Positions 6,440-54,285 of a stretch of 64,000 bases of DNA are shown here, piece after piece; position 1 is the first letter of the stretch; each line of letters starts with the position of its first letter. The notes below the pieces were generated by a model. It was given only the letters and a program-made list of their open reading frames with translations. It ran no database searches and had not been told where the DNA came from. The position numbers were made by a program, and so were the translations under genes. Origin of the DNA: Octopus vulgaris (Eukaryota); contig OX597826.1 of the NCBI GenBank assembly GCA_951406725.2, positions 74,338,001-74,402,000 of the forward strand. The letters are read 5' to 3'.

Positions 6440-6682
6440 GTGCAAAGGAATTTTATTTAATTCTTTCGCAGGAAGGACTTGTTCGACGAATCGTGTTCTG
6501 TCCTCACCTTCGAAACACGCTGGAGTTGAACTAGGGACAGCTGATGAAGGGGATTTTTCCTTGTGTAGTTGTCTTGTACTCTGTTTTTTCGTTGTTAAAA
6601 AAATGGTCCGTTCCATGCTTGTTTTTACTTTTTCGTTTCTCGTTGAGTTCTACGTCTATTTGTGGTGTCCTGTACTCACGTA
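6440..6682 (+). mobile_element. 5'-truncated copy of the TA-embedded repeat carrying the permuted hammerhead
   Basis: Homologous to about 14245-14490 and 38965-39203; ends in a (TA)-rich tract. Confidence 0.75.
6492..6552 (+). ncRNA. Putative hammerhead ribozyme with non-canonical strand order C-B-A (copy 1, all core nucleotides intact)
   Basis: CGTG-TT-CTGTCCT / CAC / CTTC-GAAA-CACG / linker / GGGACAG-CTGATGA-AGGGG; stem III CGTG:CACG, stem I CTGTCCT:GGGACAG, weak stem II. Confidence 0.6.
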
Positions 6683-12386: not shown

Positions 12387-12449
<63 letters not shown>

Positions 12450-12454
<5 letters not shown>

Positions 12455-12632
12455 AACTGGGACAGGAACGTGAAACATTTAGAAGACGATGCAAAAAACA
12501 CGGACGGGACATTCGAAGCCTTCAATCTTCAGTCTGATCCGGTTCTTCACTGAAGATTGAAGGCTTCGAATGTCCCGTCCGTGTTTTTTGTATCGTCTTC
12601 TAAATGTTTCACGTTCTTGTCCCAGTTTGTAT
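12450..12632. repeat. Inverted repeat (84-bp arms, 15-nt spacer) of a TA-embedded PLE-like terminus
   Basis: Arms 12450-12533 and 12549-12632; the right arm is homologous to about 20467-20550. Confidence 0.85.
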
Positions 12633-12695
12633 TTTTTTACATTTACATATATATATATATAAGCGTCGACGTACCCTTCTTGATCTTATACGTAA

Positions 12696-12743
<48 letters not shown>

Positions 12744-13855: not shown

Positions 13856-14494
13856 GAACGCCACGCATCTTCTTCCAAGTAAGTTTTATCTTAATAATTC
13901 TGATGCGCTCTCTATACGATCTTTTTACTCTTTCGTTTTTCTCTCTTTCTATCTCTTATTCTTTTACCTTCTCTTCTCCCACTATTCTATCCCATTACTT
14001 GTCACTCTCTCTCCCTCACTCCTCTTTCTTTGCTCACGTGGCCCTCGTGACCATCGGCCATTTTTCTTTCTTCTAATTCGTGTTTCTTTCTCTCCTTTGT
14101 AGCTGGAACAAGGAAGACGCGTTTTTGTTTGTCTCCTGTCCAAGCTTGATTAATGCGTTCGCCATCACAACCTCGTTTAGCTTAACAGCCCTTCCTGTTT
14201 GTTTTAACCGTCCTGTTTGTGTTACCGATTTTGACCCTCCACAAAATCCCAAATTTTATTTAGTTTGCTTTGCGGGAACAACTGTTTTATCGAAAGCGCA
14301 TATTGTTGTTAAATGTTCGAAATACGAGACTAGCAAAAACAGCCAACAACTGATGAAGGCTCATTCTTTATGTTGTTTGTCTTGTTTTCCATTTGTGTCT
14401 TTTGTTGTTCGAAAAAATAGTTCATATTCCTTGTACACGTACTTCGTATTTTTTGTTGCACATGTTTCGTGACGTCCTGCGTCCACATATTCAT

Positions 14495-20183: not shown

Positions 20184-20352
20184 CTTTATTTAAAAGCAGC
20201 AGAAATATCACAAAAACTGTTACTCAGAGTTTCACGTTCCCGTTCGTCGGACAGTTTTGTTTAGATTCTAAAAGAAAACTGTCCGACGAACGTGAACATG
20301 AAACTCTGAGTAACAATTTTTGCGATATTTCTGCTGCTTTTAAATAAAGCAT
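20181..20352. mobile_element. Inverted-repeat PLE-like terminus carrying two divergent hammerheads
   Basis: Arms 20181-20258 and 20275-20352, next to (TA)n. Confidence 0.8.
20213..20258 (-). ncRNA. Minimal type-I hammerhead ribozyme (U4C core variant)
   Basis: Minus strand AAAACTGT-CCGACGA-ACG-GGAA-CGT-GAAA-CTCTGAG-TA-ACAGTTTT: 8-bp stem I, GNRA-capped stem II; a degenerate mirror copy lies at 20275-20320 (+). Confidence 0.7.
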
Positions 20353-20430: not shown

Positions 20431-20615
20431 TAATCAGCCGAAATTGCGAAGATGATCCGGTTCTTGACTGATGATTGAGGGCTTCGAATGTTCCGTCCGT
20501 GTTTTTTGTGTCGTCTTCTAAATGTTTCACGTTCTTGTCCCAGTTTGTATATTTTTTTACTTTTACATATATACATGGCGGCTACGTACCCACTTTTTGA
20601 CCCTATACGTAAGTA
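20431..20615 (+). mobile_element. TA-embedded repeat with hammerhead strands in B-then-A order, 5'-truncated
   Basis: AGCC-GAAA-TTGCG (20436-20448) precedes TTCTTGA-CTGATGA-TTGA-GGGCT (20461-20483); homologous to 12535-12695. Confidence 0.6.
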
Positions 20616-20618
20616 TAT

Positions 20619-21683: not shown

Positions 21684-21766
21684 GACCTACACGTGTTTCC
21701 GCTGCAGCGATTACTCACTGTTGGAAAAGCAACATTGCATTATTGTTAATGCAGCTTCATCAGGTT
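21684..21766 (-). ncRNA. Type-I hammerhead with extended stem II (left-arm copy, one stem I mismatch)
   Basis: Mirror of 22083-22167. Confidence 0.6.
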
Positions 21767-22082: not shown

Positions 22083-22167
22083 GACCCTGATGAAGCTGCA
22101 CCGACAATAATGCAAGGTTGCATTTTCCAACAGTGAGTAGTCGCTGCAGCGGAAACACGTGTAGGTC
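22083..22167 (+). ncRNA. Type-I hammerhead ribozyme, canonical core, extended stem II
   Basis: GACC-CTGATGA-A-GCTGCA-(44 nt)-TGCAGC-G-GAAA-CACGTG-TA-GGTC; palindromic stem III. Confidence 0.75.
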
Positions 22168-23304: not shown

Positions 23305-23435
23305 ATAATAATAATAATAATAACATCGAAAAATACCTTAGGAATCAGAACCCAGCTTCGAAATTTCCCCAAGACTCCTGATGAAGGCTGGAGAGTATAT
23401 CCGCCGAAACGTTGTGATAGCAACAAACAAGATAT
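23157..23435 (+). mobile_element. tRNA-headed SINE-like element with internal (TAC)n(TAA)n and a degenerate hammerhead in its tail
   Basis: Head GGGCATATGGCGTAGTGGTTAAGAGCGCGGGCTACTAATCCCAAGATTCCGATTTCGATTCC; tail CTGATGA-A-GGCTGGA...TCCGCC-GAAA-CG-TT at 23378-23413. Confidence 0.6.
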
Positions 23436-25815: not shown

Positions 25816-25874
25816 ATAAAACTCAGAGTTTCGGATGTCGAGGCGGAAACCTGCCCCGGCATCTCTTCAGTTAT
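25816..25874 (-). ncRNA. Type-I hammerhead ribozyme, canonical core
   Basis: Minus strand ATAA-CTGAAGA-GATGCCGGGGCAGGTTTCCGCCTCGACATC-C-GAAA-CTCTGAG-TT-TTAT, within a TA-flanked repeat of about 25710-25910. Confidence 0.65.
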
Positions 25875-36112: not shown

Positions 36113-37613
36113 CTATAAAGCAAAGCTTCTGAACTGGAAAGCCATGCCTTATATTTAACATACTCAGACGTATTCTTTGAATCATCTTATAATATTGGTT
36201 TCAAATTTTGGCACAAAGCCAGTCATTTTTGGGGAAGGGGACTAGTTGATTACATCGACTCCAGTACTCAACTGGTACTTATTTTATTGACCCCCAAAAC
36301 GAAAAAGTTGACCTCGGTGGAATTTGAATTCAGAACATAAAGACGGACGAAATACCACTAAACATTGTGCCCGAACTGCTAACGATTCTGGCAGCTTACT
36401 GCCTTCAGAACTTATCTTATTAATAAATCAATATACATAACTGGATGAGTATAATTAATATCTGTAACCTAGAATATAATAAATGTACAGAGTGTTTCAT
36501 ATGTGCATACCTCTTATGACCTTGGTGAAGGCAGGTTAACACTAAACGACCTCCACACACACTGTGTATATAGATCAGATCTGTATGTTGAGATAAGCAA
36601 AGACTTCCAGCTGGATATGAAACTAAGTTAATTGAATTAAAAGTTACAAACAGCAACAACTTTACAGCTACGTCCTACTTCCCTAAGCTGATAGGAATGT
36701 CAGTTTTTATCAATCAACCTCTTTTACTCTAGTCTCTTCCTATAAAATTGACCCCGTTGTAAAATTTACGAATTTGTTTCCGTTGTCGTAGCTAGGAAGT
36801 CTTTTTTTTTTAAATGTGAGAACAAAATAGAATCTATACTATAATAAACTATGATGAATGAAAGAGATTAATATGGTATAGGAATAACTTGTATTAAAAT
36901 GTTCTTCTGAAGAGCGATCTCATATGAAAAAAAGAGAATAAATAAATAAAAAGGCAATTCGTTCTGAATTGTACCATTCTGTAAACTGGAAGTTGGATTC
37001 TTGGGTTAATCTTACGGAGGAACACGTGCCTCGTCTAAAGCTTATCTCAATTGTAACCGTGATGTTATTTAGGTTTTATAATATTTAGACAAAAATATCT
37101 TTCTTAATGAAGTGGTTTTTTTTTATAAAATAAGTCCATGGGAAGCTGCGGAGTTCGTAAGTTAGATAAATGAATATAAGAAAATGTGAAATGAGTGGCC
37201 AGTTAAACCAAATTTGTATCCATTTCACACAAACACAATGGCCCTGAACATGGAAGTCCGTATATCCACATACGCACATATGATAGATAGATAGAGAGAT
37301 AGAGAGAGAGAGAGAGGGGGGGATAAAGAAAAGAGAGAAGAGGAGGGGAAAGTAAAAGAAGAGAGGAAAGAGAGAGAAGAGGAGGGGAAAGTAAAAGAAG
37401 AGAGGGAAGAGAGAGAAGAGTGAGAAGTGAACGCTTAAATTTATTTATAGATATACCCAGTGTGATTCTGTTGAAATGAAACAATATTTCTTTATTTGGA
37501 ACAGTGTATCTCGAAGCAAACAAACCAATAAATAATAGGGTGTAAACATTGGGTTACTGAAATAAAGTTACCTGTGAGAAACAATGCTTCATTCAATTCA
37601 CAAATTGGCATAA

Positions 37614-38045
37614 AGGCGGCGAGCTGGCAGAAAGGTTAGCAGGCCGGGCGAAATGCGTAGCCGTATATCGTCTGCCGTTACGTTCTGAGTTCCAAATTCT
37701 GCTGAGGTCGACTTTGCCTTTCATCCTTTCGGGGGTAGATAAATTAAGTACCAGTTACGCACTGGGGTCCATGTAATCGACTTAATCCATTTGTCTGTCC
37801 TTGTTTGTCCCCTCTATGTTTAGCCCCTTGTGGGTAGTAAAGAAATAGGTATTTCGTCTGCCGCTACGTTCTGAGTTCCAAATTCCGCCGAGGTCGACTT
37901 TGCCTTTCATTCTTTCGGGGTCGATTAAATAAATACCAGTTATGCACTGGGGTCGATATAATCGACTTAATCCGTTTTTCTGTTATTGTTTGTCCCCTCT
38001 GTGTTTAGCCCCTTGTGGGTAGTAAAGAAATAGGTATTTCGTCTG
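37614..38045 (+). mobile_element. Family-A SINE with two internal ~180-bp tandem units
   Basis: One head, then TATTTCGTCTG...AAAGAAATAGG repeated. Confidence 0.9.
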
Positions 38046-38344
38046 TCTGTTATTGAAAATTTATTGTTGGAGTGTGTTCGTAAAGTAAGTTACTGTTAAT
38101 TGTTATACCTCTTGTTGCGCCTATTGTTGGACTTTTTGTTTAAAAATTGCATTCTGGTTTTCTTTCGAAATCTATCTATGGTTTTCATCCGTGGGGGAAA
38201 ACATTAATTGCCGGCAAGATGCTGAAAAATGTCTTCGTCGGATGAAGATTCATCGACTGAGCGGGAAGCCAGTAAGATTGAAAGTTTAATTTTTGATAAT
38301 ATTTCTGATGTCTCGGAAAGTGAATTCCATGCTTTACCAAAAAG

Positions 38345-39203
38345 CATCATATATGTTGCATGTCTCGTTTCTCTGTATGTTTTTTTTTTCGTTGTTCGAA
38401 AAAAGTTCGTTTTCTATGTTTTTGCTTTTATGTTTTCGTATCTCATTGTGTTCAACGGTTTTTGGATGTCCTGTACCTATATATGCATGTACATATATGT
38501 ATGTATATATGCATATATTTATATATTGTTTATATTATTATATGATCGAACGCCAAGCATCATTTTCCAAGTAAGTTTTATCTTAATAATTACGATGCGC
38601 ACACTTACTCTATCTCTACTATCTCTTCTCTGTTCTGTCTCTGTCTCTCTCTTGTTCTTCATCCTTTCTGGTTTTCTCTCCCACCCTTCCTTATTCTTCT
38701 CCCCTCCCCTTTACCGTTCCCTCTCTGTCATTCTTCCTCCTTGACTCTCTCGTCGCTGACACGTGACGAAAGTGAATCTCTCTTTCTGCCCATTTCCTTC
38801 CTAAAGACAGCACGTGCTTATACCTGTCTCCTCTCATAAGCTGATCTTCCTAGCGTTCATAATAATGTTTCTATTATCTTGGCTCAACAGCCCTCACCGT
38901 TTGTTTTTACTGTCTTGTTCTCACTGTCCTGTTCTTGTTACCACTTTCACCCTCCGCAAAAAATCCCAAATTTTATTTAATTTGCTTTGCGGGAAGGACT
39001 GTTTCAAGGAGGTCGCGTATTGTCCTTGCCTTCGAACGCGGAGTAGATGAAACAGGGACAACTGATGAAGGGGAATATTCTTTATGTTGCATTCTCGTTT
39101 CTCTGTTTATTTTTTCGTTGTTCGAAAAAAGTTCGTTTTCTATGTTTTTTTTAATGTTTTCGTTTCTCATTGAGTTCAACGTTTTTTTTATGTCCTGTAC
39201 CCA
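38345..39203 (+). mobile_element. TA-embedded repeat: 3' end of one unit followed head-to-tail by a full unit (period 724 bp)
   Basis: TGTCCTGTACC at 38467 and 39191; unit start GAACGCCAAGCATC at about 38548; homologous to 13856-14490. Confidence 0.8.
39014..39073 (+). ncRNA. Putative C-B-A permuted hammerhead (copy 3; one A missing from GAAA)
   Basis: CGCG-TA-TTGTCCT / TG / CCTTC-GAA-CGCG / linker / GGGACAA-CTGATGA-AGGGG. Confidence 0.55.
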
Positions 39204-47999: not shown

Positions 48000-48398
48000 T
48001 TCTACTCTTAGCAAAAGGCCCGAAATTTTGGGGGAATGGGGGGGGCTGTCGATTAGATCGATCCCAATACGCAACTGGTACTTAATTTATCTAACCCGAA
48101 AGGATGAAAGGTAAAGTCAACCTCGGCGGAATTTGAACTCAAAACATAGAGACAGACGAAATACATATTTCTTTACTACCCACAAGGGGCTAAACACAGA
48201 GAGGATAATCAAGGACAGGCAAACAGATTAAGTCGATTATATCGACCCCAGTGCGTAACTGGTACTTAATTTATTGATCCCGAAAGGATGAAAGGCAAAG
48301 TCGACCTCGGCGGAATTTGAACTTAGAACGTAGCGGCAGACGAAATACTGCTAAGCATTTCGCCCAGTGTGCTAACGATTCTGCCAGCTCACCGCCTT
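48000..48398 (-). mobile_element. Family-A SINE dimer
   Basis: Reverse-complement head and two cores. Confidence 0.9.
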
Positions 48399-49765: not shown

Positions 49766-49795
49766 AGAGAGAGTAACAATAGACTGTTTCATTGA

Positions 49796-50392
49796 GGCGG
49801 CGAGCTGGCAGAAACGTTAGCGCGCCGGGCGAAATGCTTTGTGGTATTTCGTCTGTCTTTACGTTCTGAGTTCAAATTCCGCTGAGGTCGACTTTGCCTT
49901 TCATCCTTTCGGGGTCGATAAATTAAGTACCAGTTATGCACTGGGTCGATCTAATCGACTTAATCCGTTTGTCTGTCCTTGTTTGTCCTCTCTGTGTTTA
50001 GCCCGTTCTGGGTAGTAAAGAAATAGGTATTTCGTCTGCCGCTACGTTCTGAGTTCAAATTCCGCTGAGGTCGACTTTGCTTTTCATCTTTTCGGGGTCG
50101 ATAAATTAAGTACCAGTCACGCACTGCGGTCGATGCAATCGACTTAATCCGTTTTCTGTCCTTGTTTGTCTTCTCTGTGCTTAGCCCCTTGTGGGTAGTA
50201 AAGAAATAGGTAGTTCGTCTGCCGTTACGTTCTGGATTCAAATTCCGCTGAGGTCGACTTTTCCTTTCATCCTTTCGGGGTCGATAAATTAAGTACCAGT
50301 TATGCACTGGAGTCGATGTAATCGACTTAGTCCCTTTATCTGTCCTTCTTTGTCCCCTCTATGTTTATCCCCTTGTGGGCAATAAAGAAATA
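49796..50392 (+). mobile_element. Family-A SINE with three internal ~183-bp tandem units
   Basis: One head and three near-identical cores. Confidence 0.9.
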
Positions 50393-51134
50393 ATTATATA
50401 TATAAGTACATGTATGTTAATATATGCATAAATACATTTATACACTCACACACACACACATAAATGCGTGAATGTATCACATCATTCTTCGCCTTTGAAA
50501 CGTTGATACTTTGACGGTTGCTGGCTTCCATATCGTCTGGGCTTCTTTCGTTTCTGCACATACCCACAGTGTTACTGTCGTAAAGAATTTCTGTTGAGTA
50601 AAGATCTTCTGATAACCTTCAACACCATCCTCATCCTTTGTTGTTGATATGCAATAACAATATTCTAAAAATACATTTCATTGAAATAATTTCCATAACA
50701 TTTATAAAGTTGCATGATTGTTATTATTCAAACATCGCTCAGACATTCCATGTTTATAAAGGGAAATTCTTATTTTTGTTTATCAGTTGCATTGTCCTGC
50801 AAGTTTTAATCTGTATTCCCACGCAATTATTTCTATGGTGTCATCAACATTCTCTTATCTAAAAATGTGAATGTAATTCTATATTCATATTTATTTTCTC
50901 CTAATTTTTTATCGTTATTTAATCTTATCTTATTTCGAAACAACTGTAGAGCAAATGACTATGGCTTTATTTTATAAGTCTAATATTTTAGCAAAGAAAT
51001 TCTGCTTTCGCTAACTCATAGCTCCTCAGAAACAAAATATTTTGCGTCTATAAACGCAGTTGCATTAATTTTAGAATATTTCTGTAAAATTTCAGCGAGG
51101 TGAACGAATTTTATTCACAAAAGTCAAACTACGT

Positions 51135-53267: not shown

Positions 53268-53813
53268 ATGTGAAATATATGTCTTTATATATCTACGTGT
53301 AAAGTCTATGTCTTTATTCTGTAAGTGTGTTTAACTAGGTATGTGTCTGTATATTTGTGTCTGTACGTATTCAAGTGAGAATTAATTTAACACACGTACA
53401 GATAGACAGAATAGGAACACACACAACGAGGAAAACACACACACATACACACACACAATATATAGAACAACACAAGCACACAGCTAGATAGATGAGGTAT
53501 ACACACATACATACACGCGCCCACACACACGCACACACACACACACACACGCACACACACACACACGCGCGCGCACAGATAGAATGGGGACATACATACA
53601 CATAGCTACATAAACGAGGTACACACACACACACTCGTATAAACACACACACATGTATACATTTTCCGAAATATTAATGAACACACAGAGATGATCTCCC
53701 ACGTAGACAAGCCTTTTATGCCATAGCAGTTAAATCGCCCTTAAACCAGGGCTTAAGTTTACATTAAATATCAATTAAACCACACTTAATTATAGCAATA
53801 CACCTGAACTCTA

Positions 53814-54285
53814 AGCTGGCAGAAACGTTAGCACGCCGGGCAAAATGCTTAGCGGTATTTCGTCTGTCGTTACGTTCTGAGTTCAAATTCCGCCGAGCTC
53901 GGCTTTGCCTTTCATCCTTTCGGGGTCGATAAATTATGTACCAGTAACGCACTGGGGTCGATGTAATCGACTTAATCCGTTTATCTGTCCTTGTTTGTCC
54001 TATCTATGTTTAGCCCCTTGTGGGTAGTAAAGAAATAGGTATTTCTGCCGCTACGTTGTGAGTTCAAATTCCGCTGAGGTCGACTTTGCCTTTCATCCGA
54101 TAGAATAAATATTAGACTTATAAAGAATAAGTCCTGGAGTCCATACGGTGGTGCTCCAGCATGGCCACAATCAATAGAATATGTACTTGGCTTACAAAGA
54201 ATAAGTATTGAGGTCGATTTGTTCGACTAAAGGCGGTGCTCCAGTATGGCTGCAGCCAAATGACTGAAACAAATAAAAGAATAAA
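53814..54285 (+). mobile_element. Family-A SINE multimer joined to duplicated family-B tails
   Basis: A core to about 54098, then GATAGAATAA...GGTGCTCCAGCATGGCC-type tail twice. Confidence 0.75.

Follow-up and report, generated by a model that had tools for sequence, protein, structure and literature searches.

The window (the whole 64,000-nt stretch of Octopus vulgaris DNA that was analysed) contained a 5'-truncated copy of a non-coding repeat, family 2a, on the plus strand at 20431..20618, which ended with an optional tail and was directly preceded by a (TA)n run. Positions 20431-20490 read TAAT-CAGCC-GAAA-TTGCG, then 12 nt, then TTCTTGA-CTGATGA-TTGA-GGGCT, and all motifs of the original prediction were found where it had placed them. 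On the plus strand, the copy comprised the 3' strand of stem II (CAGCC, 20435..20439), whose partner in intact copies is GGCTG, 21 nt upstream of U16.1 and 5' of the cleavage strand; GAAA (G12-A15.1) with the 3' strand of stem III (20440..20447); the bulged strand of a predicted kink-turn (3-nt loop, G, A, U) with the 3' strand of P3b, a helix extending stem III (20448..20460); the 5' strand of stem I (20462..20467), which in intact copies pairs with TCAAGA after the cut; the CUGANGA core (C3-A9, 20468..20474), with N7 being T, A, G or C across copies; and the 3' strand of the outer helix P0 (20477..20490), which includes GGCT and in intact copies has its partner approximately 80 nt upstream of the cut. 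A tail (20568..20618, plus strand) continued beyond the point, +130..+159 from the cut, where copies usually have their fixed 3' end. The 5' end of the copy lay 8 nt past the predicted cleavage site. It had neither the helices further upstream, nor the 5' strand of stem II, nor a cleavage strand, and is unable to cleave alone. A separate palindromic repeat of approximately 160 nt was located just upstream (20185-20345).

In a second, two-armed insertion of family 2 in the window, the arms lay head to head in opposite orientation (12449-12533 minus, 12535-12652 plus), and the GAAA block was absent. Its inverted left arm occupied 12449..12533 (minus strand), and its right arm (12535..12701, plus strand, tail present) started at approximately +30. 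CTGAAGA at 12550-12556 confirmed the earlier report of a copy at approximately 12550 with a free N7 position, and N7 varied among copies.

Many of the family 2 copies fetched from the genome were 5'-truncated. Intact copies read GGAGCAATC, TCAAGA, TTAAT, CAGCC, GAAA. An upstream strand GCAA-TH-TCAAGA had been predicted, and intact copies carried GCAA-TC-TCAAGA, 5 nt before CAGCC-GAAA. A cleavage strand that paired with both flanks was found in 83 of the 142 fetched copies that have GAAA..CUGANGA. The proposed reversed order (cleavage strand, GAAA, CUGANGA) was borne out in intact copies, where stems I and III flank the predicted cleavage site. This block order is non-circular, unlike the type I, II and III circular permutations of Rfam, whose models gave no hits at gathering score in a scan of the window, where the family 2 copies are truncated. 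The 5' truncation itself also stood, but it is better understood as having arisen when the copy inserted into a (TA)n target than as a cut made by the microsatellite.

The 23-nt core had 3,627 exact matches in the 2.8-Gb genome versus none for the reversed control. A sister subfamily, 2b, was recognised through indel variants and added 945 matches genome-wide. A block-order descriptor gave 167 matches in the window and 627 kb of fetched loci, picked for containing the family, versus 0 in the reversed sequences; the block order is therefore not a product of chance. A metagenome pattern scan gave 0 matches.

Conservation was assessed in two alignments. Alignment A1 held 63 of 73 extracted copies (10 rows were dropped owing to deletions, inversions, truncations or near-duplication), and alignment A2 held 39 rows (20 of 2a and 19 of 30 2b loci, truncated or deleted ones being dropped). 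Family 2 copies are related by descent, so the counts are not independent events. The core columns were conserved in 61-63 of 63 copies, with N7 variable. U16.1 was present in 63 of 63 copies and H17 was C in 62 of 63 (A1). The hammerhead features CUGANGA, GAAA (fixed by the search pattern in A1 and A2) and the UH site were thereby kept. In the 63 copies of A1, stem I was paired in 98.7% of cells and stem III, whose 3' strand was fixed by the search pattern, in 99.4%. Stem I showed double changes in A2 (AU to GC in 16 of 39 rows, AU to UA in 18 of 39), and stem III showed wobble changes only within family 2. Contigs carrying four organism labels were also compared. The variants listed for them (>15%) fell on N7, the kink-turn and other loops, linkers, wobble positions and outer helices, while GAAA, stems II and III and all core positions other than N7 had none.

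The original prediction had formed stem II from AGCC and the downstream GGCT. This assignment failed: a 5-nt insertion after A9 would be needed, and the innermost pair was broken in 11 of 63 rows (A1) and 22 of 39 rows (A2), as was the next pair in 19 of 39 rows (A2). The pairs fail in A2 because 2b has an A-rich stretch in place of GGCT; in 2a, the same bases belong to P0. An alternative downstream pairing, TTGA:TCAG, was rejected since it needs a CC insertion before GAAA. The upstream GGCTG:CAGCC was paired in 96.5% (A1) and 94.9% (A2) of cells, its CAGCC strand being fixed by the search pattern. Because of this, stem II covariation was taken from a cross-family comparison. An upstream stem II of at least 4 bp was found, among copies with a cleavage strand, in 74/83 of 2a, 15/15 of 2b, 25/25 of family 1, 7/7 of Naiad and 2/5 of family 3. 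Through the upstream strand, a stem II with G10.1-C11.1 was present next to GAAA with letters that differ across four unrelated families: GGCTG:CAGCC in family 2, GAAGG:CCTTC in family 1, GACAC:GTGTC at the Naiad end and a bulged G(T)GCC:GGCC in family 3. A downstream stem II at the published 0-1 nt offset occurred in 0/83 of 2a, 0/15 of 2b, 22/25 of family 1 (G-U rich), 0/7 of Naiad and 0/5 of family 3, and at offsets 0-6 none of the 15 2b copies offered a downstream pairing of 4 bp.

These numbers bear on whether the repeat carries a plain type-SGC hammerhead, in which stem II would form downstream of CUGANGA (with GGCT, or as TTGA:TCAG) and the upstream match would be secondary or regulatory. 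Type SGC is experimentally proven (PMC10085705), its block order is present here, AGCC pairs with GGCT in 65/83 2a copies, and 22/25 copies of family 1 could form stem II with a downstream strand. We nevertheless regard this explanation as very improbable, given that no 2b copy (0/15) offers such a helix at any of the offsets considered, the innermost pair is broken in 22/39 rows, the GGCT bases pair in P0 with compensatory changes, and a stem II 5' strand 0-1 nt after CUGANGA was found in neither 2a (0/83) nor 2b (0/15). The comparison supports the upstream GGCTG as the conserved stem II partner, so the core appears to be opened between A9 and G10.1. Of the three-block (C-B-A) model originally put forward, the block order survived but its completeness did not, since a stem II partner lying upstream calls for a fourth block and the CUGANGA block is split.

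From 5' to 3', the elements were arranged as the P0 5' strand, hairpin P0b, the stem II 5' strand, P3b and the cleavage strand (AUC, stem I), followed by a 5-nt linker, the stem II 3' strand-GAAA-stem III, the kink-turn, P3b, stem I-CUGANGA and the P0 3' strand. In P0, the bases after A9 pair with the strand approximately 80 nt upstream of the cut (AU to UA in 9/63), and P0b occupies the interval that separates P0 from the 5' strand of stem II. In most 2b and family 1 copies, P0 began directly at A9 or no more than one base away from it; in 2a, two U-U or C-U mismatches lay between A9 and P0. The four-way junction was found in 60/84 copies of 2a, 14/24 of 2b, 22/25 of family 1 and 2/4 of family 3 (shifted controls ≤1.0). 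In Naiad, it was found in 0/11 at 4 bp and in 7/11 at 3 bp, versus 2.2 for the control. A near-identical head-to-tail array (G000:C1:79499296-79502489, L005-L008) consisted of 720-726-nt units with five ribozyme copies, and one of its units had a compensatory AU/UA change in P0b.

P3b was a 7-bp helix with a compensatory CG/UA change in 15/39 rows. The 12-nt stretch between the GAAA block and stem I fits a kink-turn, followed by P3b. The kink-turn consensus used for this assignment is a 3-nt bulge followed by tandem G-A and A-G pairs between two helices. Judged by sequence fit, the six G-A/U-G positions (1b, 2b, 3b, 1n, 2n, 3n) were conserved and the loop was variable. RNAalifold recovered stem III and P3b unprompted; folding programs, RNAalifold included, also proposed a competing pairing in which the upstream GGCTG is sequestered. 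Taken together, the alignments make a conserved split fold very likely. In such a fold, P0 and P0b would stack and hold A9 against G10.1 without a covalent join, and the kink-turn would fold P3b back so that it links stem I to stem II at their tips.

Dimeric hammerheads of Penelope-like elements (PLEs) are a model for blocks that act in trans. By analogy, two tandem units or two molecules might together rebuild an ordinary hammerhead, and tandem units with periods of 720-867 nt were indeed common. However, P3b, the kink-turn and P0 join all blocks within approximately 145 nt of one unit and covary locally, and the palindromic stem III was absent, which leaves trans action with hardly any probability.

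The split layout was also found outside family 2. The unrelated family 1 had a copy at 6442..6560 (plus strand) in which the upstream GAAGG pairs with CCTTC. Further split reversed copies of family 1 lay at approximately 38990-39090 and 14280-14380 (plus strand); the one at 39062 had compensatory changes in stems I and III and had lost one A of GAAA, and the one at 14350 was decayed. Family 3, whose stem II has a bulge after the first pair, had the same layout at L240:330-470 (minus strand; near 1759000 of G000:C1), with 1,175 first-look candidates. In the supplement of Craig et al. (PMC8557442), the published consensus sequences Naiad_Obim and Naiad_Ovul both end in this ribozyme layout, and the Octopus Naiad consensus motif had 670 genome matches with ≤1 mismatch.

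The distribution of 5' ends was analysed in 93 copies collected via a marker downstream of the ribozyme, from 89 loci among the first 100 of 1,541 matches, all on C1. In this sample from the first 100 matches, 27 of 74 copies at risk ended at +1..+12 versus 7 of 47 at -12..-1 (Fisher p 0.012); the other bins held 9/83 (+13..+24) and, further upstream, 2/40 and 0/38. With the start defined as the first exact 6-nt run, the values were 28/72 versus 4/44 (p 0.0005), again within the first 100 matches. The CAGCC-anchored set, a partly overlapping sample, gave 25/90 versus 5/65 (p 0.002), and the 2b sample alone gave 5/29 versus 0/24 (p 0.056). No ends fell at a TA-rich site at -84..-73 (TATACA, approximately -80; 0 of 29, and also 0 of 53). 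Most ends were at +3..+12 rather than +1, within a spread of +1..+21, and their exact positions (+6, +8, +10) were shaped partly by TA microhomology. Some copies began exactly at +1. In two Naiad-type copies (L247:1506 and 2108, plus strand), the 5' end followed a (TA)n run and coincided precisely with the predicted cleavage site.

This pile-up is most simply explained by a reverse transcriptase that ran to the end of a template already cleaved at its 5' side, the products then being trimmed somewhat. As truncated copies start shortly past the predicted cut, the element is likely self-cutting, and active cleavage by the split hammerhead seems probable to us. Activity is not guaranteed, as we found no precedent for a core opened at A9/G10.1. 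The fold might instead be conserved without cleaving, as a protein-binding structure for the PLE enzyme or a kink-turn bound by an L7Ae-family protein, with the 5' ends produced by reverse-transcriptase stalling and TA microhomology. Such a role would suit the spread of ends over +1..+21 and an opened core that is unprecedented in the literature searched and whose activity is a prediction from sequence; in addition, the hammerhead of a Poseidon PLE required protein in order to cut, and in vitro insertion could proceed without it (PMC11167929). It would leave unexplained why the CUGANGA/GAAA core and UH site are kept across unrelated families with only N7 free, why ends become so much rarer on the upstream side of the cut, although the strong P0b hairpin and a better TA match are located there, and why some copies, including the two Naiad copies in L247, start exactly at +1. 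We therefore consider a non-cleaving fold unlikely and favour cleavage by the split hammerhead.

The repeat unit was 720-870 nt long and pyrimidine-rich, with no recognised open reading frame (ORF) and one ribozyme per unit. Units occurred as partial tandems and in one array of five ribozyme copies. Of 125 copies, 95 had their 3' end within +130..+159 of the cut, mostly running into (TA)n, and a few had a further tail. The (TA)n target, partial tandem, fixed internal 3' end, tail and inverted arm together form a Penelope-like footprint, the inverted arm, when scored with a strict marker, being present in 5 of 90 loci and also at window 12449-12533. No ORF of an autonomous partner (GIY-YIG and RT) was recognised by eye beside the fetched family 2 copies (0.7-1.5 kb flanks). 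Nearby RLE/LINE fragments (L123, L126) were taken as separate insertions. In searches of the supplement of Craig et al. (PMC8557442), short family 2 motifs were absent or matched coding sequence only.

The best explanation for the window copy, with a probability of roughly 0.7, is a 5'-truncated copy of a non-coding retroelement with a predicted split reversed hammerhead, likely copied from cut RNA by a Penelope-type enzyme. Tandem transcripts would be cut by the ribozyme into unit-length RNAs, and a Penelope-type enzyme would copy the precut RNA into (TA)n. Reverse transcription would start internally, approximately 145 nt after the cut. Running off the cut 5' end would yield short copies such as that at 20431, and passing an uncut or re-ligated site would yield partial tandems and arrays; the longer copies show that uncut or re-ligated templates were also used. 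We hold Penelope-type mobilisation to be highly probable. That Naiad specifically drives family 2 has about an even chance, and a circular template is somewhat doubtful.

Metazoan non-LTR retrozymes share the non-coding tandem units with one hammerhead each, and are thought to be mobilised by Penelope-like elements via cleaved or circular RNA (PMC7229834; 10.64898/2026.07.22.740005). According to the same sources, they have type I hammerheads and mostly 150-450-bp units. The octopus unit, known here from DNA copies, has the retrozyme organisation but differs in its length (720-870 nt) and in having the split reversed form instead of a type I hammerhead. Naiad PLEs (Craig et al. 2021, PMC8557442) share the (TA)n targets, partial tandems, inverted 5'-truncated arm and 30-40-bp tail, the tail being a described PLE feature (PMC8557442, PMC11167929); family 2, unlike Naiad, has no ORF. 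Naiads were reported to be without canonical hammerheads, and Naiad_Ovul was marked HHR_half_core (PMC8557442). For the Poseidon PLE, internal initiation of reverse transcription was shown, which the fixed 3' ends of family 2 match, and hammerhead cleavage was not needed for in vitro insertion (PMC11167929).

The closest known ribozymes are hammerheads from metatranscriptomes, type SGC (HRIMA-1 and variants) and type CSG, described by Eckert et al. 2023 (PMC10085705). Shared with these are the reverse block order, two pseudoknots, a short linker that joins the 3' strands of stems I and II, and an additional helix that connects these two stems at their tips. The octopus form differs in that CUGANGA and the stem II 5' strand are separated, in its four-way junction and in the predicted kink-turn on stem III. 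Eckert et al. reported non-circular hammerhead forms almost only from environmental RNA and DNA, and assumed CUGANGA and the stem II 5' strand to be inseparable (PMC10085705). As their search patterns require adjacency at A9/G10.1, they cannot match the octopus form. In the predicted topology, the circle from which SGC, CSG and GCS derive has its opening at a fourth position, A9/G10.1. We found no description of a split-core reversed topology in the open-access papers and preprints searched.

On balance, we lean towards a broader interpretation in which animal genomes carry many thousands of active reversed hammerheads in several independent sequence families, with a catalytic core opened at A9/G10.1, a four-way junction and a kink-turn as clamps, and hence a topology outside the six permutations considered possible; these would represent the missing Naiad ribozyme and a new retrozyme class whose truncated copies record the cut in vivo. 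If this is true, an interrupted reverse-order form in thousands of animal copies extends ribozyme topology and explains the apparent absence of ribozymes in Naiad elements, and an entire class escapes searches based on descriptors. The accumulation of 5' ends would then be a genomic readout of in vivo cleavage that bears on the role of hammerheads in Penelope-type transposition.

Other repeats in the window also contained hammerhead motifs. Ordinary-order cores (CUGANGA, stem II, GAAAC), as typical of Penelope elements, were found at 23378-23410 (plus strand) and approximately 25835-25870 (minus strand), and were missed by Rfam at gathering score. An inverted pair of another repeat (approximately 21700-21763, minus strand, and 22087-22150, plus strand) had CTGATGA, a long hairpin and a downstream GGAAAC, and is possibly a two-armed hammerhead-bearing insertion. 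A very abundant SINE-like repeat of approximately 185 nt, presumably the known octopus tRNA-derived SINE, often formed short tandem runs (1614-2340, 37600-38050, 48040-48390, 49790-50400, 53770-54050 and others).
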